A stretch of 64,000 bases of DNA from an uncultured Candidatus Saccharibacteria bacterium (GCA_964421635.1 CAYQWZ010000006.1:165-64164), one strand, 5' to 3'. Counted from the first letter of the stretch, positions 3-64,000 are shown. Program-made: numbers and translations. Notes: generated from the sequence alone by a model not told the origin.

Positions 3-540
3 TTAGTAACAGGAAATATTAGATCAGGAATTAATATCTTTGGAATTGATGGTAATGCTAATGTGGTTAATACCTCAACCGGAGATGCTATAGCTGCAGA
101 TATTCTGTTTGGCAAGATTGCTTGGGTAGATGGTTCTGAAATTACAGGTAATATCTCTACCAATACGCTTTCTGCTGCTAACGACACAGTTTCCGCTGGT
201 TATTACGCTGCTACTACTCTGGCAACAGTAGACACCGACTTAGTCACAGGAAATATTCTTTCGGGTAAGACTATCTTTGGAGTGGCTGGTAACTCTAATG
301 TGGTAAACACCTCAACCGGAGATGCCACTGCAGCAGATATTCTGTTCGGCAAGATTGCTTGGGTAGATGGCTCAGAGATTACGGGAAGCATGGCAACCCA
401 GACCTTATCTGCAGATAGTCTAACGCTATCTGCTGGCTACTATACAGCTACAACCTTATCTACCGTAGATTCTGACTTAACAGCGGCTAATATTAAATCT
501 GGTGCAACAGTCTTTGGTCTTGCGGGAACAGCTGTTGCTG
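3..540. repeat. Tandem ~237-bp intragenic coding repeats (2 full copies plus partial) in surface protein gene
   Basis: Protein repeat units starting at nt 63 and nt 300 are ~80% identical; upstream partial unit runs to window start. Confidence 0.6.
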
Positions 541-4126: not shown

Positions 4127-5128
4127 GTGAAAAAAATTATCCCAGTGGTGGCTTTTTTTCTTCCGGTAGTGGTATTTGGCTCCACCTTATTTTTAAATCA
4201 AAAAAATGAGCAATGGATGACAATCAAAGCCCAAGCTGCCGGTATTGAAGAAGAGCAACAGGTTCTAGGCGCTCAAGTGACAGATATCGCAGATAAAATT
4301 AGCTCAGTTCAAGCAGAAGTTTATTACGGTCCGGGCGAAATTTATACACTCGACGATATGCAAACAATTTTGGGCATTGAGGTTTTCGAAGAAGATATTG
4401 TGACCGCCTTTCCGAATCCTTCGTTAGGAGTAGGCTCAGAAATTAAAGTTTATCGGGCGCAGGCAGTTTTAGTAGTCGACGCAAAAGCAGAAACCGTATA
4501 TAGAAGCTGGATGCGGACTATTGGCGAAATGCTGGCCGAAAAGGGAATTGAGGTTGGCGATGATGATGAAGTGGAGCCGAATCAGGACACTGAATATTTA
4601 ACAGACAATCGGTTGACGCCTGTCAAAATAATAATTACGCGAGTTGAAGAAACAGATGTGGAAGTGCCTCAAAAAATTGAATTCGAAGTGGAGTATCAAG
4701 ATGATAGTTCAATGTTTAAAGGTGAGACGAAAGTTTTACAGGCTGGTATAGAAGGATTGCGCATAAAAACCTATCATGTACGGCGCGAGAATGGGGAAGA
4801 GGTCGCGCGCGATTTAGTTGCTAATGAGGTCACTAAAAATCCGCAAACGAAGGTAATCGCGCGCGGCACAAAAGTGAAAACTTACGGCTCTGGCAACGCC
4901 ACTTGGTACACGAAAAAGTATAGTCATGTAGCCGCCCACAACACCTTACCGCGAGGGACGAGGGTAAAAGTCATAAACAACGCAAACGGCAAATCTACAG
5001 AAGTTACCGTAGTCGGCGGCGGATTATACACTAATGCAATTATAGATTTATCATATGACGCCTTTTCTGAGATAGCAGATCCTTCGGCTGGCGTAATTTC
5101 GGTCAGACTAGAAAAAGTGTACGATTAG
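4127..5128 (+). CDS. YabE-like cell-wall protein: N-terminal TM, G5 domain, C-terminal 3D/RlpA-like double-psi beta-barrel domain
   Basis: GTG start; hydrophobic N-terminus; G5-like segment (VKIIITRVEETDVEVPQKIEFEV...); C-terminal YGSGNATWYTKKYSHVAAHNTLPRGTRVKV...VVGGGLYTNAIIDLSYDAF. Synteny with rsmA as for yabE-ksgA in Bacillus. Confidence 0.65.
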   Translation: MKKIIPVVAFFLPVVVFGSTLFLNQKNEQWMTIKAQAAGIEEEQQVLGAQVTDIADKISSVQAEVYYGPGEIYTLDDMQTILGIEVFEEDIVTAFPNPSLGVGSEIKVYRAQAVLVVDAKAETVYRSWMRTIGEMLAEKGIEVGDDDEVEPNQDTEYLTDNRLTPVKIIITRVEETDVEVPQKIEFEVEYQDDSSMFKGETKVLQAGIEGLRIKTYHVRRENGEEVARDLVANEVTKNPQTKVIARGTKVKTYGSGNATWYTKKYSHVAAHNTLPRGTRVKVINNANGKSTEVTVVGGGLYTNAIIDLSYDAFSEIADPSAGVISVRLEKVYD

Positions 5129-29379: not shown

Positions 29380-29646
29380 ATGGCTCAAACTCCGCCAAAC
29401 AATCAAAATCAATCAAACACTAGTAATAATACGGGTAATAATCCGAATAGTAATTCGGGCGGATTTATTAATCCGCTAGCTCAGCCTGCACGACAGAAAT
29501 CCTCAACCCCAACCCCAACCCCAACCCCAACCCCAACCCCAACCAGTACCGCCCCCACCTCCGCCCCCACCACCTGTTGCACCGCCTCCTGCAAAACCGG
29601 TTTCGCTGCCACCTATCAAGCCTCCTCCGCCACCTCTAGCCACTAA
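29380..29646 (+). CDS. Low-complexity N/S/T/P-rich ORF, probably the frameshifted N-terminal part of the downstream proline-rich protein
   Basis: Frame 1 overlaps frame 2, which is open from 29480 through 31303; contains the (CCCCAA)6 tract. Confidence 0.35.
   Translation: MAQTPPNNQNQSNTSNNTGNNPNSNSGGFINPLAQPARQKSSTPTPTPTPTPTPTSTAPTSAPTTCCTASCKTGFAATYQASSATSSH
29505..29544. repeat. Hexanucleotide simple sequence repeat (AACCCC)6 followed by C5 tracts
   Basis: aaccccaaccccaaccccaaccccaaccccaacccc read directly; encodes TPTPTP in one frame and PQPQPQ in the other. Confidence 0.8.
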
Positions 29647-29725
29647 TGTTGAGGCAAAGAGTAAGCCACTGCAAACAGGTCAAATTCTATCTCAAGATAG
29701 CGCTAGAGCTAGCGGAGTTTTCTCT

Positions 29726-31303
29726 TTGCCAACAGACGACGAAATTATGGCTGAAAAGAGAAGAGAGAAATTAATGAAAAAACCGTCTTTACCAGAGCCT
29801 GAGTCAAAACCGGCTCCATTACCAAAACCAGTCCCACCGCCAGCGCCAAGACCAACTTCGCTACCACCCCCACCACCTTTGTCACCAAGGCCAACCCCAC
29901 CTCCGCCCCCTCCGCCGTCACCAATGCAAAATCTACAACCAGCACCGAGGCCGGTACCAAAACCAGCACCAGTTTTGACGCAACCAAATAGACCTCAGCC
30001 TCCGCTACCGCCAAAAGGTGATATTCCTTTAGTAGAAACCGAACCGCGACCACCTTGGTTTATTCCAGTAATTAGCGTCAGCGCTTTGGTAGTGGTTGGA
30101 ATAATTTTGCTATTTTTACAATCTAGCGGAGTAATTTACGCTAAATTCTTGGCTAGCATGGTAGGTGGAATTCCGCGAAATCCAGAAGCTGCCCTCAATG
30201 TAGTCCGCGACGCCACACTAAACGGCGGTACATACGAATACACAGCTATTGCTACTATTGGGTTTGAGAATAAAATTCCAGATATTGAAGCAGATGAATT
30301 ACCAACTAGTCCGTCAGAGGCTTCAATCAATTTCTCTGGTCAGGCAGATATTGACAAGGTTTATGCTGAGTTCGAAACTAATATCAACTCCCAGTACATT
30401 CCAACCCTCTCTTATTTAGAAGGAGTTTATGCTAAAGACGGCCAAAACATTACAACCTTCTTAGATTTATTTTTATCTGTTAATAATAGTTGGCGGAAGA
30501 TGTCGCAAACAGAATTTAAAAGTTATGTCGTAGCTGCTCCTTTCGTTGGTTTGCAATCCATTAATTTAATTGAAAGTGCAACTGGTTCGGCTGGTGAATT
30601 AATTGGGCAAAGCGAACTACCAGAGAAAGGGGTGAAGACGGTTGTTTATAAATATCCTTTAGAAAATTTTATAGAGCCTACCGACGCCAGTATTAAAGAT
30701 TCGCAGCTGGCTTTTTGGGTAAATAAGAGAAGCGGATTAATTGAGGTTTACCAGCTAGACACTTTAATCGAAACAGATGTTGGAACAATTTTATTAAGTT
30801 TGCAGGTGACTCCAGAGAAATATGGAGAGGTAGAAGTTGAGACAGCTTCTGGGTCATCTGGAGCAGTCAGTGGTACCCTGTCTGATTATTATTCAGATTT
30901 TGGTTATGGATTACCAGTTGATCCAACAGAACCAGAGCCAATAGGTCCAACAGAACCTGAACCAATTGAACCTACACTGCCAACAGATTCCGCTGCAACT
31001 CGCGATAAGCAACGAACGACAGATTTAAATAAAATAAAAACCGTACTTGAGGAATACAAAGAATCAAAAGGTACCTATCCTATTTCGAAAGCTGTCGATA
31101 GAACGAATGCCAGCACCGTACTTAAGGGAGCAATTGTGCCAAGCTATCTTTCAAGTTTGCCAGTTGACCCTCTTGAAGATAAGTACTGGTACGGCTATAC
31201 TTCAGATGGATACTCCTTTACTCTAACTTCAATTTTAGAAGATACAGATTCGTCAGGATTACAAGGAGACAATGTTAAATATCAAGAAATTACAAATAAA
31301 TAA
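29726..31303 (+). CDS. Proline-rich membrane protein with C-terminal pseudopilin/type IV pilin-like domain
   Basis: TTG start per ORF track (first ATG 29747); cytoplasmic P-rich region; TM WFIPVISVSALVVVGIILLFL; C-terminal RDKQRTTDLNKIKTVLEEYKESKGTYP...LPVDP motif resembling the GspG/pilin globular domain. Confidence 0.55.
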   Translation: MPTDDEIMAEKRREKLMKKPSLPEPESKPAPLPKPVPPPAPRPTSLPPPPPLSPRPTPPPPPPPSPMQNLQPAPRPVPKPAPVLTQPNRPQPPLPPKGDIPLVETEPRPPWFIPVISVSALVVVGIILLFLQSSGVIYAKFLASMVGGIPRNPEAALNVVRDATLNGGTYEYTAIATIGFENKIPDIEADELPTSPSEASINFSGQADIDKVYAEFETNINSQYIPTLSYLEGVYAKDGQNITTFLDLFLSVNNSWRKMSQTEFKSYVVAAPFVGLQSINLIESATGSAGELIGQSELPEKGVKTVVYKYPLENFIEPTDASIKDSQLAFWVNKRSGLIEVYQLDTLIETDVGTILLSLQVTPEKYGEVEVETASGSSGAVSGTLSDYYSDFGYGLPVDPTEPEPIGPTEPEPIEPTLPTDSAATRDKQRTTDLNKIKTVLEEYKESKGTYPISKAVDRTNASTVLKGAIVPSYLSSLPVDPLEDKYWYGYTSDGYSFTLTSILEDTDSSGLQGDNVKYQEITNK

Positions 31304-51435: not shown

Positions 51436-52863
51436 ATGAGCAAAAATAAAAAGAACATAACACCACAGACAGAGAGTTTTTCGAAGTGGTATCAAGATGT
51501 AGTACGAGAAGCAGATTTGGCCGAAAGTTCAGAAGTTAGAGGCAGTGGCATCGTCAAACCTTATGGTTTCAAAATCTGGAAATTAATAAAAAAACAATTG
51601 GAGAGTCAAATTGAAGCCACGGGCGCAGAAGATGTTTATTTCCCACTGTTAATTCCTATTGCTAATTTAGAGATTGAAAAGAAGCATATAGAAGGATTTT
51701 CCCCAGAATTGGCCGTTGTAACTCATGGTGGTGGAGAAGAGTTGACCAATAAATTAGCCATTAGACCAACCAGTGAGACAGCTATGTATACATCGTATGC
51801 TAAATGGATTCAAGGTTATTCAGACCTGCCTTTGCGTCTAAATCAATGGAATAATGTGATGCGATGGGAGAAACGACCACGAGCATTTTTACGCTGGAGT
51901 GAATTTTTATGGCAAGAAGGGCATTCCGCTTTTGCTACAAAAAAAGAAGCTATTGATGAAGTCTGGCAGATGATAGGTGAATACGAAAAGCTGTATAAAT
52001 ATTTAGCTATTCCTACATTTATTGGCACCAAGTCTGAAGCCGAAAAATTTGCCGGTGCTGAAATGACTGTTAGCGCAGAGGTGATGGCCAGAGATGGAAA
52101 AGCTATTCAGGCGGCGACTAGTCATTATTTGGGTACCAACTTTGCTAAAGCTTTTGGTATTAAATATTCAGACAAAGACGGGAAAAGCCAGTTCGTTCAT
52201 CAGAACAGTTGGGGTTTGTCTTGGCGCTCAGTGGGTGCGGTAATTATGGCTCACGGTGATGATAATGGATTACGCTTGCCACCAAATGTAGCCCCAATTC
52301 AGGTAGTAATTGTGCCTATAGTGAAGGACAATAACGCGGAAGAAATATTGAGTTACTGCCATAAACTCGATGTTCAGCTAAAAGCTTTCAGAACAAAAAT
52401 TGATGAGCGTACAGATTTGAACCCCGGTTTTAAATATAACTATTGGGAAGTAAAAGGTGTACCTGTTCGATTAGAGGTTGGCAGTAAAGAAGTTAAGACT
52501 AATGAAGTGTCAGTCTTTAGAAGAGATACAGCTGAGCGCCAAAATGTAGCAACATCAGAAATTTCGAGTACTGTTAAAAAAACCTTGGCTGATGTGCAAG
52601 ACAATTTGTATCAACAAGCTCAAGAGTTTGCCAGCAGCCACATTCATCGCATTGAAGATGTCTCAGAGATAAAAGAGCAAGTAGGTTTTTTTGAAGCTAG
52701 CTGGTGTGAATCAGAAGAGTCTGAAAAGATGTTGAAAGAGAAATATTCAATCACTTCACGAGTTTTACTAACAAAAGACAAAGAGAGCAAGCCTAAGAAT
52801 AAACAGTGTTTCATTACCAAAAAAGAGGCAAAACACGATTGGCTTTTTGCGCAGAGCTATTAA
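51436..52863 (+). CDS. proS: Prolyl-tRNA synthetase (archaeal/eukaryote-like class II form)
   Basis: FSKWYQDVVREADL start, class II motifs, C-terminal zinc-binding-like domain; 475 aa. Confidence 0.9.
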   Translation: MSKNKKNITPQTESFSKWYQDVVREADLAESSEVRGSGIVKPYGFKIWKLIKKQLESQIEATGAEDVYFPLLIPIANLEIEKKHIEGFSPELAVVTHGGGEELTNKLAIRPTSETAMYTSYAKWIQGYSDLPLRLNQWNNVMRWEKRPRAFLRWSEFLWQEGHSAFATKKEAIDEVWQMIGEYEKLYKYLAIPTFIGTKSEAEKFAGAEMTVSAEVMARDGKAIQAATSHYLGTNFAKAFGIKYSDKDGKSQFVHQNSWGLSWRSVGAVIMAHGDDNGLRLPPNVAPIQVVIVPIVKDNNAEEILSYCHKLDVQLKAFRTKIDERTDLNPGFKYNYWEVKGVPVRLEVGSKEVKTNEVSVFRRDTAERQNVATSEISSTVKKTLADVQDNLYQQAQEFASSHIHRIEDVSEIKEQVGFFEASWCESEESEKMLKEKYSITSRVLLTKDKESKPKNKQCFITKKEAKHDWLFAQSY

Positions 52864-52880
52864 GCCTTAAATAAAAAAGA

Positions 52881-52907
52881 GTCCCAGCGGCGCGCCGCCA
52901 CCGGGAC
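52881..52907. repeat. GC-rich palindromic hairpin (gtccc-agcggcgcgccgcca-ccgggac with internal 12-nt perfect palindrome gcggcgcgccgc); terminator on minus strand
   Basis: A-run immediately 5' on the plus strand (U-run after the hairpin on minus); starts a ~110-nt GC-rich stretch foreign to the AT-rich surroundings. Confidence 0.5.
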
Positions 52908-52980
52908 CCTGGGTCGTCGGCACGATTGGCACCAAGCATTATCTGTCGCCCGAGGAGGTGATCCCGCTTGGTAACCGTTG

Positions 52981-53072
52981 ATTATAGTATCATTAAAAGC
53001 TAAATTGTGTCAATGAGGTAGAAAGTTATTATGGTAATTGTTTTGTAATGATTATGTGTTATTATAGTGTCA
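52981..53072 (+). promoter_or_regulatory. Promoter/operator region of rSAM cluster: direct repeats ATTATAGT(A/G)TCA at 52981 and 53061, the second containing a TATAGT -10-like hexamer
   Basis: Two 12-nt near-identical copies 80 nt apart; the second lies ~20 nt upstream of the peptide ORF SD. Confidence 0.4.
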
Positions 53073-53091
53073 AATAATAGCTGGAGTTTGT

Positions 53092-53145
53092 ATGAAGATA
53101 GTAATAAAAAAGAACAGAGGGTGTTCTCTCTGTGTTCCAACATAG
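53092..53145 (+). CDS. Candidate RiPP precursor peptide (17 aa, two Cys), not in ORF track
   Basis: ATG preceded by CTGGAG SD at -8; translates to MKIVIKKNRGCSLCVPT; stop 27 nt before the rSAM gene SD. Confidence 0.4.
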   Translation: MKIVIKKNRGCSLCVPT

Positions 53146-53172
53146 CACCTTATTTATTAAGGACATTGTGAT

Positions 53173-54147
53173 ATGAGCGAATGTATTAATATCGCCAATC
53201 CTTATTATGTTCAATTACATCTGTTAGCAGATTGTATTTTTAATTGTTCGTACTGTTATTTAAAGGGATATGATAGAAAAAGCATGCTTTCAAAAAAACA
53301 AATTAATACCTTTCTTAACAAATTTAACAACTACTACCAGGACTTTGGTCTCAGAGTACACATAAATTTGACAGGTGGTGACATATGGCTATATGAAGGT
53401 ATTAGCGAAATATTCTTTTTACTAAAAAAACACAAAGTTGTTCAAGATTTTAGTTTGTTGCTCAATAGTCTATGGCATGAAGATTCTTATAAAATTATCA
53501 AAGACAATAAAAATAGCATATCACTTGTACAGCTAAATATAGATGCGATAAATAATAGAGATAAGGACATTCAATTTTTAAGTAAAGAAAAAATTAGATT
53601 TGTTATTAAAATTCTTCTATCAAATAATGAGCATTATTATATAAAACAACTTAATATTCTTCGCAAATTATTAAGAAAATATCCAGATTTATTAGTTTCT
53701 ATTGATAGAATTTGTCCCACCAATCAGTCTAACAAAAAAATGAGACTTTCAGTAAAAAATTTAAAAAAGAAATTATTGGAGATACGATCAATTGCAAATA
53801 ATGTATTAATCGTTGATGATCCTTTAGTTTCTGCTTTTTTTAATAAAGCAAAATCAGAATCGGAAAAAGGATTTTGGAATGGATGTGTAATCCCAAGCGG
53901 TGGCTTAGCTGTATATCCTAATGGGGAAGTAAAACTCTGTGCACGAATACCCAATTATACTACAGGTTTTACAATAAACAATTTCACTTTAGAACATTAC
54001 ATAGATAGTTTTAGTGAGATTAGAAATCAGCAAATGAAAAATTGTAATAAATGTCCAATATCTGCGCAGTGTCAGGGTGGTTGTCCAGCTACATCTTTTA
54101 TTGACAAAAATATTATTACAAAAGATCATCAATGTTTATATGAGTAA
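53173..54147 (+). CDS. Radical SAM enzyme with C-terminal SPASM domain (peptide-modifying maturase candidate)
   Basis: CIFNCSYC (CX3CX2C) near N-terminus, NLTGGDIW glycine-rich SAM motif, C-terminal CNKCPISAQCQGGC (CX2CX5CX3C) plus additional Cys; AT-rich. Confidence 0.8.
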   Translation: MSECINIANPYYVQLHLLADCIFNCSYCYLKGYDRKSMLSKKQINTFLNKFNNYYQDFGLRVHINLTGGDIWLYEGISEIFFLLKKHKVVQDFSLLLNSLWHEDSYKIIKDNKNSISLVQLNIDAINNRDKDIQFLSKEKIRFVIKILLSNNEHYYIKQLNILRKLLRKYPDLLVSIDRICPTNQSNKKMRLSVKNLKKKLLEIRSIANNVLIVDDPLVSAFFNKAKSESEKGFWNGCVIPSGGLAVYPNGEVKLCARIPNYTTGFTINNFTLEHYIDSFSEIRNQQMKNCNKCPISAQCQGGCPATSFIDKNIITKDHQCLYE

Positions 54148-55069
54148 TGAAAATGAAAGGACCAATGAAAACTTGCCTGAAGAAAATAGGTTTGAAGCTA
54201 CAAGGGTAACTTCTTCAGCTGATTTATTGAGAGCAGATTTTCTTTCTGACCAATTAGTTTCATTTCTTACAAATACCACAAAAAGATATTCTCTTTCTGT
54301 GGCTGACATTGAATTAGTGATGGATCTATTATATAGACCTGGTACAGAGGTCAATCGGGAGATTGTTCTTGCACTATCAAAAGTGCTTGAATATAGAGAT
54401 GATTTTTCACCGGAGGGAATGGACCAAGACTATTTAGCAAATTTGCATTTGAATAGAAAATTTAGATATCGTCCTCATTATTATCATTTTAGACAACACT
54501 CAGCTTACACATGTGGTATAGTTTGTTATCTAATGGCTGCGAATGTTCATACATCAGAATTAGTGCCATCAAAGCGTCAAGAAAGAACTCTTTATAATGA
54601 ATTAGCCGATGAAGAAGGTCTTGTATCTACGATTGCTCTAATGAGAGATGCTGCGTCGAGAGGCTTATACGTTCGAGCGTGTTCTGATAATAATTATTTA
54701 GATATTGAAATGGATGATGAAAGGGCAGAATCTCTGAGAAGATCATTTGTCGCTTTATTAGAATCACCAGATGGTCAATCTTTCGTTCGGTATTCTCCTT
54801 CTGTAGATCTTAATGCTGATTATATTCGCGATCAACTGTATCGAGGCGAGATGATGTTAATGAATGGCACAGTTGGTGGAAATATTCCTCATATGAGACT
54901 TGTCGGCGGTTATCATGGTGAATCGATGTTAGTATCAGATCCCTTAGAAAATCGAATACAGCCTCAACAAACGGAAATTTTAGAAGCAAATATTCAAGCT
55001 CCATTGGGAAAATTCGGCTTTAGTGTCTCAAGCAAACCTTTCAATTTTTATGGAGATCAAGAAATATGA
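54140..55069 (+). CDS. Protein with C39-like papain-fold cysteine peptidase domain (putative leader peptidase) plus unknown N-terminal region
   Basis: Start ATG 54140 (ATGAGTAA overlap with rSAM stop). RQHSAYTCGIVCYLMAAN (Q-x5-C-G..C..M, as at the C39 active-site Cys) and HMRLVGGYHGESMLVSDP (His/Asp region like HxVVL....VxxxDP). Confidence 0.5.
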   Translation: MSNENERTNENLPEENRFEATRVTSSADLLRADFLSDQLVSFLTNTTKRYSLSVADIELVMDLLYRPGTEVNREIVLALSKVLEYRDDFSPEGMDQDYLANLHLNRKFRYRPHYYHFRQHSAYTCGIVCYLMAANVHTSELVPSKRQERTLYNELADEEGLVSTIALMRDAASRGLYVRACSDNNYLDIEMDDERAESLRRSFVALLESPDGQSFVRYSPSVDLNADYIRDQLYRGEMMLMNGTVGGNIPHMRLVGGYHGESMLVSDPLENRIQPQQTEILEANIQAPLGKFGFSVSSKPFNFYGDQEI

Positions 55070-56130
55070 GTGAATACTTAAGGGCAAATGTTGCCGAAGT
55101 ATTTACTGGTGAAGAAGAGGTATCTTCAATGGACAACGAAAATCTGACCATTACCGAATCACATGGGCTAGATTTTGATTTTGGGCATCTGGGATCAAAT
55201 GTATTACAAGTTATGAGTGGTCTTAATATTCGATATGACTATTTAAACCCAGAACTAGAATTAACACTTGGTCAGATACAAGAAGAAATAGTATTCCCGA
55301 TATTACAAGAAAGAATTAGAAACAAGGAAAATCCTTTAGTATTGAAAGAACAAATTGATGCAGTCGCAGCAGTATTAGATCCACGATTAATGCCCGCAAG
55401 TTCTTTTGTTGAATTAATGCATTCTGTCTATCGAAGAAAAATAGTAAATCAACAACAAATGAGTTTATTGTTAAGCGGGTGCATTGACAATGCCTTTGAT
55501 GAAGATCAACTTCAAAGAGCAGGAGACCTCTTAGCTGAATCTGAAAGTGTTGAGCCATATTTTTTTGCTATTTCACAAAGAATGAAGGATTTTATTGATT
55601 TTGCTCTAAATAATATTTCTGAGAGATATCAATTGTATGAAGAAGATGAGCTGCTTCTTTCTTCTCCTGCTCAGGCTTCTTTTTACACGCTTAGAATGTT
55701 GGATCATAGAGAAGCAGTACTTGTTAGTAGAGGGTTAATGGTTGGCACAGAATTATCGGTCGAAGATCATGTTGAAATATTGGCCAATCGTTATTATAAC
55801 GGGTCATTATCTAGGGCAAGAAAAGCAATTGAAAATGAAAGGGATATCAATGTTAATGTAGTCGGTTTTGAAGCAATGAAGGAAGGGGTACATCAGTGGT
55901 GGTTAAGAAAATTTTATTACTTACAGTCTAGAAAATTGTATGGTGCATTAGATGTTGACGAATTATTATTTTTCGATAATACTGTTGACAAATTTTTTCA
56001 GTCGAAGAATTGTCTTATGCATGATATTTTTTTAAGGGCAAAAATGGAAGAGATACCCAAAAAAAACTGGTCTCAATGTGATACTGCTGAAATGAGAGAA
56101 AAAGTTCGTAATGTTATCAATAATTTGTAA
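55066..56130 (+). CDS. Hypothetical protein (354 aa), no recognisable domain; part of rSAM cluster
   Basis: ATGA overlap with upstream gene; same low GC as cluster. Confidence 0.45.
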   Translation: MSEYLRANVAEVFTGEEEVSSMDNENLTITESHGLDFDFGHLGSNVLQVMSGLNIRYDYLNPELELTLGQIQEEIVFPILQERIRNKENPLVLKEQIDAVAAVLDPRLMPASSFVELMHSVYRRKIVNQQQMSLLLSGCIDNAFDEDQLQRAGDLLAESESVEPYFFAISQRMKDFIDFALNNISERYQLYEEDELLLSSPAQASFYTLRMLDHREAVLVSRGLMVGTELSVEDHVEILANRYYNGSLSRARKAIENERDINVNVVGFEAMKEGVHQWWLRKFYYLQSRKLYGALDVDELLFFDNTVDKFFQSKNCLMHDIFLRAKMEEIPKKNWSQCDTAEMREKVRNVINNL

Positions 56131-56196
56131 TAGCATTAAAAACTTGACAATTACTCAATAATCCGTTTTAGTTACCTAAAATAAGCAAATATCACG

Positions 56197-56865
56197 ATGA
56201 CAGCCTTAGTTGTTGAAGACGACAGAGATATCGCTACATTTATTGAGAAGGGGTTGAAGTTAGAAGGATTTGTTACGCAGCTAGCTTTCGATGGTGAAGA
56301 GGCGTTGGACTTAATTGAAAGTAACGATTACGACATAGTAATTTTAGATTTAATGCTGCCTAAACTTAAGGGAGAGAAGGTGCTAAGCACTGTTAGAGAG
56401 GCAGGTATTAATGTTCCAATAATTGTGCTAACAGCCAAGACAGAGACTAATTCAAAAGTTAATGCCCTAGACCAAGGGGCCGACGATTATCTAACTAAGC
56501 CTTTTGCTTTTGAAGAATTAATGGCGCGCATTCGAGCTCTGACTCGTCGCGGCAATCAGCTACAACCAAACATTTTACAGGTAGGTGAGTTAGAGCTTAA
56601 TCCGGCGACGCGAGAAGTGAAGCGGGCAGGAAAAATTTTAGAGCTGACCAAAAAAGAGTACGCCATAGTGGAGTTATTGATGCGAAATACTGAGCGAGTT
56701 TGTACCCGTAGCATGATAGGTGAGCATGTTTGGGGTTTTGAATTCGATATGATGAGCAATGTGATAGATGTGCATATCGCTCGTTTGCGTCGTAAGGTTG
56801 ATAAAGGATTTTCAAAAAAAATGGTTCGTACTATTCGTGATGTCGGATACCGATTGCAGGTCTAA
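56197..56865 (+). CDS. OmpR/PhoB-family response regulator (orphan)
   Basis: LVVEDDRDI, DLMLPKLKG, VRTIRDVGYRL; TTGACA -35-like hexamer 17 nt from TTTAGT upstream. Confidence 0.85.
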   Translation: MTALVVEDDRDIATFIEKGLKLEGFVTQLAFDGEEALDLIESNDYDIVILDLMLPKLKGEKVLSTVREAGINVPIIVLTAKTETNSKVNALDQGADDYLTKPFAFEELMARIRALTRRGNQLQPNILQVGELELNPATREVKRAGKILELTKKEYAIVELLMRNTERVCTRSMIGEHVWGFEFDMMSNVIDVHIARLRRKVDKGFSKKMVRTIRDVGYRLQV

Positions 56866-63067: not shown

Positions 63068-64000
63068 TATATTTAAGAGTTTGATCCTGGCTCAGGACTA
63101 ACGTTGGCGATGTGCCTAACACATGCAAGTCGAGCGGCCCTTCGGGGCAGCGGCAGACGGCTGAGTAACACGTCCGTAACATACCCCAAAGCGGGGGATA
63201 GCTCGTCGAAAGACGGGGTAATACCCCATGTGGTGTCACCATAATTTGGTGCCATTAAAGTATTTATACACTTTGGGAGTGGCGGGCGGCCTATCAGGTT
63301 GTTGGTGAGGTAAAGGCTCACCAAGCCTACGACGGGTAGCTGGTCTGAGAGGATGTACCAGCCAGACCGGGACTGAGACACGGCCCGGACTCCTACGGGA
63401 GGCAGCAGTTGGGAATTTTGCACAATGGACGAAAGTCTGATGCAGCAACATCGCGTGTAGGAAGACGCACTTCGGTGTGTAAACTACTTTTATTTGGGAA
63501 TAATTTTTTGAAGGTACCTTATGAATAAGCACCGGCTAATCTCGTGCCAGCAGCCGCGGTAATACGAGAGGTGCAAACGTTGTCCGGAATTACTGGGCGT
63601 AAAGAGTACGTAGGTGGTTTGATAAGTCGTTTATTAAAGATCAGGGCTTAACCCTGGGAATGTGAGCGAAACTGTCTTACTTGAGTTAAGCAGAGGTGTG
63701 CGGAACACTCGGTGAAGGGGTGACATCCGTTGATATCGAGTGGAACACCAAAGGCGAAAGCAGCACACTGGGCTTTAACTGACACTGAGGTACGAAAGCG
63801 TAGGTAGCGATCGGGATTAGATACCCCGGTAGTCTACGCTGTAAACGCTGCTCACTAGGCATTGGAAAGTATCGACCCTCTTTAGTGCCAAAGCTAACGC
63901 GTTAAGTGAGCCGCCTGGGGAGTACGAACGCAAGTTTAAAACTCAAAGGAATTGGCGGGGAGACGCACAAGTGGTGGAGCGTGTGGTTTAATTCGATGCT
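63068..64000 (+). rRNA. rrs: 16S ribosomal RNA, 5' ~930 nt (continues beyond window)
   Basis: AGAGTTTGATCCTGGCTCAG at 63076, GTGCCAGCAGCCGCGGTAATAC at ~63545, ATTAGATACCCCGGTAGTC, AAACTCAAAGGAATTGGCGG; overlapping minus-strand ORFs are spurious. Confidence 0.92.

Follow-up and report, generated by a model that had tools for sequence, protein, structure and literature searches.

The window analysed here is a stretch of 64,000 nucleotides from an uncultured Candidatus Saccharibacteria bacterium (GCA_964421635.1 CAYQWZ010000006.1:165-64164), and our subject is a compact cassette of four co-directional genes on its plus strand, between proS and the gene of an OmpR-type response regulator (Table 1). 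In order, the genes encode a 17-residue peptide with two cysteines, a radical S-adenosylmethionine (SAM) enzyme with a SPASM domain, a standalone C39-like cysteine peptidase and a 354-residue protein that we call X. An initial annotation, made by a model from the DNA alone, had listed the same four elements in the same order and on the same strand, and had proposed a new cluster for a ribosomally synthesised and post-translationally modified peptide (RiPP). Our follow-up supports that interpretation, and each computational test by which the annotation had proposed to challenge it came out in its favour. We consider it probable that the cassette is a self-contained four-gene operon for a radical SAM RiPP of an undescribed family, the product of which would carry one or two thioether rings.

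Gene content of the cassette

The cassette is tightly packed. As the initial annotation had read, the stop codon of the radical SAM gene overlaps the start of the C39-like gene via ATGAGTAA, and the stop codon of the latter overlaps the start of the X gene via ATGA. The 17-codon open reading frame (ORF) with a Shine-Dalgarno sequence is likewise there, with its start codon corrected to the position given in Table 1. The annotation also described the entire cassette as AT-rich, at approximately 30% GC. This composition is real but strong only in the radical SAM gene, which has 28% GC; the C39-like and X genes have 36% and 34%, respectively, against an average of 41% for the remainder of the window. 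A proposed TATAGT promoter found no support, since a consensus promoter scan gave no plus-strand promoter ahead of the peptide ORF.

Table 1. Positions of the cassette genes and of other features in the window, counted from its first nucleotide.
Feature	Position	Strand	Details	Basis
Shine-Dalgarno-like GGAG	53083..53086	+	5 nt 5' of the peptide ATG	read from sequence
Precursor peptide gene (predicted)	53092..53145	+	17 codons + stop, MKIVIKKNRGCSLCVPT; ATG 53092, TAG 53143-53145	read from sequence
Radical SAM/SPASM enzyme gene	53173..54147	+	324 aa	Pfam and NCBIfam scans, family alignment A1
C39-like peptidase gene	54140..55069	+	309 aa, standalone, papain fold	profile scans, AlphaFold2 (AF2), Foldseek
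Protein X gene	55066..56130	+	354 aa, all-alpha	homologue searches, AF2 model
proS	51436-52863			
OmpR-type response regulator gene	56197-56865			
GC-rich intergenic element	52870-52985	-	just past proS	
Promoter-like TTGACA-18-TACTAT	53013-52984	-	divergent from the cassette	
Hairpin, then T-run	52910-52878	-	15-bp GC hairpin, approximately 100 nt beyond the promoter-like site	
Repeat array	29508-29970		13 imperfect copies of C/A-rich units	
Tandem duplication	3-476		237 nt, 74% identity	
16S rRNA gene	63069-64000		runs off the window end; 905 bits, model positions 1-958	

Conservation of three protein families

Relatives of the radical SAM enzyme form 23 clusters among 5.8 billion proteins, at 37-55% identity. 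The few that carry a name come from Patescibacteria, Collierbacteria and Saccharibacteria, plus one contig labelled Parvarchaeota. The cassette itself recurs in approximately 20 metagenomic loci, of which the labelled ones are mostly Patescibacteria. Its recurring order is the radical SAM gene, one or more C39-like genes and a gene for an X protein of 310-370 residues, with genes that mostly overlap.

We compared every ORF of at least 80 residues in 16 of these loci, all against all, and counted the families present in at least three loci. Exactly three were obtained: the radical SAM enzyme (16/16), X (15/16) and the C39-like protein (13/16). The sole locus without X (L026) is on a contig that ends approximately 300 bp past the radical SAM gene. 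No transporter, regulator or immunity gene is shared by at least three of the 16 loci. With no regulator common to the loci, the response regulator of the window lies outside the conserved unit. The initial annotation was thus right that an OmpR-type regulator follows the cassette, but the two are not conserved together, and a TTGACA box is located within the 66-nt gap that precedes the regulator gene; for these two reasons we rejected it as a member of the system. The position between proS and the regulator is incidental to the genome of the window.

The base composition of the cassette was compared with that of its flanks in eight loci. The cassette is clearly AT-richer in five and AT-richer by 2-6 points in a sixth; in L027 the AT-richness is confined to the radical SAM gene, and in L019 there is none relative to the flanks. 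Together with the patchy distribution, the AT-richness suggests an accessory, laterally moving module.

A short peptide with a conserved motif

Among the tests named in the initial annotation, the decisive one was whether homologous loci carry a conserved short Cys peptide, and they do. Of the 17 distinct loci with upstream sequence, 16 have one; the 16 peptides are all distinct and share N-x-x-C-x-x-C within the longer motif [KR]-N-x-small-C-x-[ILV]-C-x-P-[ST]. Counting the first Cys as position 0, there is K or R at -4, N at -3 (15/16 peptides), a small residue at -1, an aliphatic residue at +2, the second Cys at +3, P at +5 (13/16) and S or T at +6, where the Pro-less forms have an acidic residue. 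The precursors are 17-33 residues long and contain two to four Cys; examples from related loci are MKVRVLRNKTCKICQGE, MKVKKAKNKSCSVCSHD, MKVKLVKNKGCKICVPTAPTK, MVKTKKNKTCHICFPTQKVTSPKIKK, MLILKKNKACKICQPSKNPKRGKKNG, MKKKIKKILVKKVKNNGCHICIPTVKK and MKAKVVKTAKKVAVRKNKCCCMCYD. Their ORFs start with ATG, lie on the same strand as the radical SAM gene and, in all loci but one, stop 0-100 nt 5' of it. For the window peptide, we propose N8-R-G-C11-S-L-C14-V-P-T17 as the core. No Pfam or NCBIfam precursor model matches the longer peptides, by which known precursor families were ruled out, and none of the peptides has a GG, GA or GS leader motif.

The precursor ORF is not annotated in any of the public gene calls examined, indicating that standard annotation pipelines miss it. 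The same observation would be expected if the 17-codon ORF were a cis-regulatory upstream ORF or a chance occurrence. In that case the target of the radical SAM enzyme would be X or the C39-like protein, its constant and sometimes fused companions, in the way that anaerobic sulfatase-maturating enzymes act on sulfatases or QhpD acts on QhpC. Several observations make this very improbable. The amino-acid motif is kept across loci whose radical SAM enzymes share just 37-55% identity and whose flanking DNA shows no conservation, and the conserved positions include Asn, Pro and Thr rather than Cys codons alone. The exceptional locus, L001, has the X gene between the peptide gene and the radical SAM gene and nevertheless retains the motif. 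The pattern [KR]N.{1,2}C..C occurs 14 times at the one defined precursor position, whereas shuffled sequence gives an expectation of 2.75 occurrences anywhere in the 184 kb of loci. X, moreover, has no invariant Cys. Finally, the closest locus (L047) encodes MKIILVVNAGCSLCMPT, and its core codons differ from those of the window by three synonymous changes and one conservative change; the synonymous changes indicate that selection acts on the peptide and not on the DNA.

Two further features of the peptide genes were seen. In L001, a hairpin followed by a T-run (AAAGGGGCAATAATGCCCCTTTATTTTT, 4922-4968) is present directly past the precursor gene and ahead of the X gene, resembling the leaky terminators by which other RiPP operons adjust the ratio of precursor to enzyme. 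The 17-mers (MKV[RK]x..K..C11xxC14) also resemble the N-terminus of ribosomal protein bL36, which we take to be MKVRxSVKxxCxxC with Cys at 11 and 14, and the L001 tail ...CYPENHKQ recalls what is presumably the bL36 tail, ...CxNPxHKQ. No bL36 gene was found in the retrieved sequences for comparison, and the likeness may be a compositional similarity only.

The radical SAM/SPASM enzyme

The enzyme has the radical SAM cluster motif C21-x3-C25-x2-C28 (CX3CX2C) and, towards its C-terminus, C291-x2-C294-x5-C300-x3-C304. Profile scans agree with the assignment made in the initial annotation, scoring 36.3 for Pfam Radical_SAM (PF04055; gathering score 29.5) and 37.9 for NCBIfam SPASM (TIGR04085; cut-off 27). 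In the family alignment, the radical SAM cysteines are at least 90% conserved and present in all members except the N-terminally truncated P0023, and seven SPASM cysteines are invariant (C238, C256, C291, C294, C300, C304 and C321). The radical SAM core begins at approximately residue 10, which leaves no N-terminal RiPP recognition element (RRE) or PqqD-like domain; nor was any Pfam or NCBIfam match to such a domain found in any cassette protein.

Assignment to a named family is a different matter. The NCBIfam scores are 48 bits for the ACGX-system enzyme (TIGR04340; cut-off 400), 38 for SbtM (350), 33.7 for PapB (NF047865; 340), 20.6 for the SCIFF maturase (TIGR03974; 425), 15.3 for the mycofactocin enzyme MftC (265) and 12.8 for the anaerobic sulfatase maturase (TIGR03942; 349). 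All 23 family members show the same behaviour, with ACGX as the top-scoring named family in 23/23 and a best E-value in the family of 9.4e-17. The last of the scores, and the lack of a sulfatase in the window neighbourhood and in related loci, set the enzyme apart from the sulfatase maturases, a grouping that the initial annotation had named as one that would refute its interpretation. The equivalog-type NCBIfam models listed for the SPASM half are all peptide or protein maturases, e.g., SbtM, PapB, SCIFF, QhpD and ScmE. An anti-phage defence function was considered and rejected: PADLOC matched only the generic radical SAM core to pVip (residues 13-130) and gave no match for the C39-like protein or X.

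Among solved structures, the best match of the radical SAM profile is the SPASM region of CteB (5wgg), followed by MoaA, YydG and SkfB for the core. CteB is a thioether synthase. In its structure, reported by Grove et al. in 2017, the seven-Cys SPASM domain reportedly keeps one position on auxiliary cluster I open to a substrate Cys, and the seven-Cys pattern seen here would likewise fit a Cys-containing substrate.

The peptide could be the substrate and nevertheless undergo a different chemistry, i.e., thio-oxazole formation as by SbtM, epimerisation as by YydG, conversion of Cys to formylglycine, or formation of a C-C or C-O cross-link. All that would then be left to the two Cys is cluster docking, or metal or disulfide chemistry in the product. 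The second-best NCBIfam match is indeed a thio(seleno)oxazole maturase, SbtM, the model of which is matched by 22/23 members, and YydG and SkfB are among the PDB sequence matches for the core; with no equivalog cut-off reached, the chemistry is not transferable by homology. Set against this, the conserved Cys pair is accompanied by Asn at -3 and by Thr, Ser, Glu or Asp at +3, which are typical donors and acceptors in radical thioether formation, and the seven-Cys SPASM pattern aligns best with CteB. We therefore regard a non-thioether modification as unlikely.

The C39-like peptidase

The 309-residue protein contains the motifs Q119-x5-C125-G and H251...D267-P, which had led the initial annotation to a C39-type peptidase. 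Taken alone, the window protein is sub-threshold in Pfam, scoring 20.3 for DUF3335 (PF11814; threshold 25) and 16.2 for Peptidase_C39 (PF03412; threshold 22). The assignment is borne out at the level of the family: among 18 members, Peptidase_C39_2 is found in 9, DUF3335 in 8 and Peptidase_C39 in 4, and the C39-type E-values of the relatives are 1e-7 to 5e-9. The predicted fold points the same way. In the AF2 model, 10-residue blocks over the C-terminal domain have a predicted local distance difference test (pLDDT) score of approximately 77-95, and the top PDB matches in Foldseek are the peptidase domains of ComA (TM score 0.74, target-normalised) and PCAT1. Gln119, Cys125, His251 and Asp267 are intact in the window protein and in all long forms.

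The catalytic domain is preceded by a helical N-terminal extension of approximately 110 residues. Long forms of 260-310 residues have this extension; short forms have 140-190 residues. Some loci carry two tandem paralogues. Two loci (L003 and L019) have a short form that lacks the Cys and His, and one locus type (L027 and L031, the X proteins of which gave identical BLAST results) has no C39-like gene.

The cassette protein resembles the C39 domains of bacteriocin exporters (ComA, PCAT1) in its papain-like fold, the Gln/Cys/His/Asp residues and the Q-x5-C-G and H...DP motifs. It differs from them in being standalone and soluble, with the helical extension and no fusion to an ABC transporter. 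In addition, the window protein lies under the Pfam gathering scores, the peptides have no double-glycine leader, and some members have lost the Cys and His. The arrangement is therefore not that of a classical C39 leader peptidase with its exporter.

The type of peptidase can be set beside the C-terminus of the peptide. In loci with two paralogues, the peptides have followers of 8-10 residues past P-[ST], and in loci with a single long form the followers have 0-5 residues. Where the peptidase is degenerate (L003, L019) or absent (L027), the peptides end in QGE, SHD or YD. Peptide tail and peptidase type thus vary together in a suggestive manner.

Protein X

The initial annotation described the 354-residue protein as having no recognisable domain. 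This holds, but the protein does not stand alone: it is a conserved and obligate partner, in some cases joined to the other two in one polypeptide. A word-indexed search, run with X alone and with a 12-sequence alignment, returned only X itself and one relative, which would make it an orphan. This was overturned by local BLAST over the retrieved loci, where an X homologue of 24-31% identity is found in every locus with a readable position, and by an exhaustive HMMER search, which gave 22 representatives among 1.84 billion proteins. Five of the 22 are fusions. P0038 and P0040 (928 and 950 residues) join the radical SAM enzyme, the C39-like protein and X; P0039, P0043 and P0044 (540-597 residues) join the C39-like protein and X. 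All align colinearly. The existence of these fusions argues strongly for joint action of the three proteins.

The invariant residues of X are Y57, Y59, E163, D213, K282, D304, H319 and D320. The AF2 model is all-helical and confident (pLDDT 84, predicted TM score 0.81), and neither a fold nor a sequence relative was found in the PDB. There is no Pfam match in 16 members, and no NCBIfam or PADLOC match. The idea that an acidic X binds a basic leader was rejected, because the isoelectric point of X ranges from 4.8 to 8.4 across the family and the L047 peptide is barely basic. X is present even where the peptidase is absent, for which the simplest reading is a partner that takes over from an RRE the presentation of the peptide.

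The polar residues E163, D213, K282, D304, H319 and D320 may also be viewed in another light, as those of a tailoring enzyme. The cassette would then produce an intracellular peptide-derived cofactor, or a metal- or thiol-active small molecule, much as in the pyrroloquinoline quinone (PQQ) and mycofactocin pathways: the radical SAM/SPASM enzyme would modify the core, the peptidase would excise a small fragment around C-x-x-C, X would tailor it, and nothing would be exported. Those pathways likewise combine a very short precursor with a radical SAM/SPASM enzyme, a peptidase and a further conserved protein, and have no dedicated exporter. It is the lack of an exporter, and of an immunity gene, in any locus that keeps this reading alive, as a secreted antibiotic without a transporter would be odd in hosts with reduced genomes. 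The cassette of L001 even adjoins a copper P-type ATPase and an HMA/CsoR-like operon. On the other side, the PqqE and MftC models remain far under their cut-offs, a PqqD/MftB-like RRE partner and the other pathway enzymes are absent, and the core of the peptide is Cys-based. The family is also rare and patchy, with its 23 radical SAM clusters, and usually AT-richer than its flanks, which fits an accessory mobile trait, and the copper genes neighbour the cassette in one locus only. Taken together, we find a cofactor quite unlikely.

Proposed pathway

We return to the RiPP with thioether rings. The proposal starts from what is observed, i.e., the gene set and its conservation, the peptide motif, the cofactor-binding motifs, the fold and catalytic residues of the peptidase, and the fusions. 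The 17-residue peptide would be the substrate. The RRE-less radical SAM/SPASM enzyme would bind a peptide Cys at an auxiliary cluster that has three protein ligands only, and the 5'-deoxyadenosyl radical would abstract hydrogen from a neighbouring residue, leading to a C-S thioether. Two small rings may form, Asn8-x-x-Cys11 and Cys14-x-x-Thr17 (with Ser, Glu or Asp in relatives). The first follows the N-x-x-C motif as used by NxxcB (see below), and the second is its mirror image, C-x-x-[T/S/E/D], which resembles the acceptors of CteB and PapB. On this basis the core is predicted to be compact and bicyclic, N-x-x-C-x-x-C-x-x-T, and the modification should change the mass by -4 Da. X would be an obligate partner of the enzyme, most likely a scaffold that presents the substrate and replaces the RRE, and less likely a second tailoring enzyme. 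The C39-like peptidase would trim the peptide once modified, cutting off its N-terminal leader and, in relatives, also a follower at the C-terminus.

A number of points weigh against this pathway. There is no RRE, exporter, immunity gene or double-glycine leader, so that the processing logic would be unlike that of characterised radical SAM RiPPs. The thioether is reached by analogy and not by deduction, as the known chemistry of SPASM enzymes extends to C-C and C-O links, to epimerisation and to further reactions. The leader of the window peptide would have approximately 7 residues only, and the window and L047 peptides end at P-T, with no follower for a peptidase to remove. The proposed ring spacing is broken in L001, with Asn at -2, and in L027, with Asp at +2, and a search of the Saccharibacteria locus L008/L018 gave no convincing precursor ORF. 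The link between peptide tail and peptidase type comes from few and phylogenetically non-independent loci, and is suggestive only. Lastly, the invariant E, D, K and H residues of X are as compatible with an enzyme as with a scaffold.

Relation to known systems

The initial annotation had recognised no described family in this combination of genes, and no curated family claims any component of the cassette. Our survey of the literature on radical SAM enzymes, SPASM domains, RiPPs and ranthipeptides in Patescibacteria, the candidate phyla radiation (CPR) and Saccharibacteria, and on ACGX, also gave no description of it. The closest parallels in logic are the sactipeptide and ranthipeptide maturases CteB/SCIFF and PapB, with which the cassette shares the CX3CX2C core, the seven-Cys SPASM domain and a short Cys precursor encoded beside the enzyme. 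The differences are the scores far under the PapB and SCIFF cut-offs, the lack of an N-terminal RRE, and the presence of a standalone C39-like protein and X with no transporter. The precursors differ as well: those of SCIFF and PapB have six Cys or CX3D repeats, those of the cassette a single CxxC in 17-33 residues.

A second parallel is with NxxcB, a radical SAM/SPASM enzyme of Streptococcus, which forms a thioether between Asn C-beta and Cys S within an NxxC motif (PMC9389541). The cassette is likened to NxxcA/NxxcB on the basis of its substrate motif, i.e., the Asn three residues before the first Cys; it differs by the second conserved Cys, the P-[ST] tail and its hosts, which are mostly CPR among the labelled loci. 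We know of no counterpart of X or of the C39-like protein in the nxxc cluster.

The ACGX enzyme, a hypothetical equivalog that is uncharacterised, is similarly short and aligns end to end (residues 12-322 to profile positions 4-338 of 341). Its score is far under the cut-off, however, and the cassette peptides match no precursor model and are not repeat peptides. Graspetide loci of CPR bacteria have been described (PMC8939145); these are ATP-grasp-based and were rejected as the same system.

The cassette thus falls outside each known family for which a family-specific test could be run, but judging from its sequences it appears to work in the manner of sactipeptide and ranthipeptide pathways. 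We class it as a radical SAM/SPASM RiPP that is unusual in three respects: its precursor is very short, it lacks an RRE, and it includes a protein that is specific to the cassette and of unknown fold.

Uncharacterised radical SAM-SPASM peptide clusters are numerous, but this one stands out by X and by its near-confinement, among labelled loci, to CPR bacteria. CPR bacteria (Patescibacteria), for their part, make up a large share of bacterial diversity and have tiny genomes with few recognised biosynthetic clusters, and to our knowledge the mediators of their dependence on host cells are largely unknown. A compact conserved cassette of approximately 3 kb provides a testable handle on a modified peptide in these organisms, and the combination of an RRE-less maturase, a 17-residue precursor and an obligate partner of unknown fold could reveal a new mode of substrate recognition. 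As a tentative and rather doubtful extension, X may be a new RiPP component, either an unseen all-alpha fold that replaces the RRE or a new tailoring enzyme based on its invariant Glu/Asp/Lys/His-Asp residues, and the cassette may yield a peptide-derived cofactor, or a new minimal thioether peptide with two rings, for use in the host-dependent lifestyle of CPR bacteria. If X has either of these roles, the system would be a new RiPP class with a new recognition principle and not another ranthipeptide.

Variant loci and other features of the window

Several related loci depart from the standard arrangement or carry additional genes. In L019 (471-1820), and also in L020, a second and larger radical SAM protein of 449 residues with a Cys-rich C-terminus is encoded directly 5' of the precursor ORF and could be a second maturase. 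L030 (3404-8081) is a distant variant, in which the radical SAM enzyme is 29% identical and lacks the CX2CX5CX3C part of SPASM. There, the radical SAM enzyme is preceded by a 516-residue protein with a C39-like domain fused behind a helical N-terminal region, two paralogous 355-residue HExxH proteins are encoded 3' of it, and no CxxC peptide was found upstream. L011 (PWUQ01000032.1), the contig labelled Candidatus Parvarchaeota archaeon, has the same gene arrangement and sizes as L048, i.e., a radical SAM enzyme, C39-like proteins of 185 and 257 residues and an X of 320 residues; either the bin assignment is wrong, or the cassette crossed into DPANN archaea. The copper genes of L001 (8201-11912, 3' of the cassette) comprise an ArsR/YHS-type regulator, a copper-type P-type ATPase with an HMA domain and a DsbD_2/cupredoxin protein. 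They may be relevant if the CxxC product binds metal.

In the window itself, the GC-rich element just past proS is a candidate small RNA that would be transcribed divergently from the cassette. The minus-strand promoter-like site is followed by the hairpin and T-run, and the predicted RNA folds better than shuffled sequence (z = -2.5). It has no Rfam family match and no second copy in the window, and contains GGAUCACCUCCU, which we take to resemble the 3' end of 16S rRNA. A bacterial 16S rRNA gene is located at the far end of the window, and a tandem duplication at its start. The remaining feature is a dense array of C/A-rich units (CCCAA, ACCxCC), the minus strand of which would encode a Gly-rich repeat.

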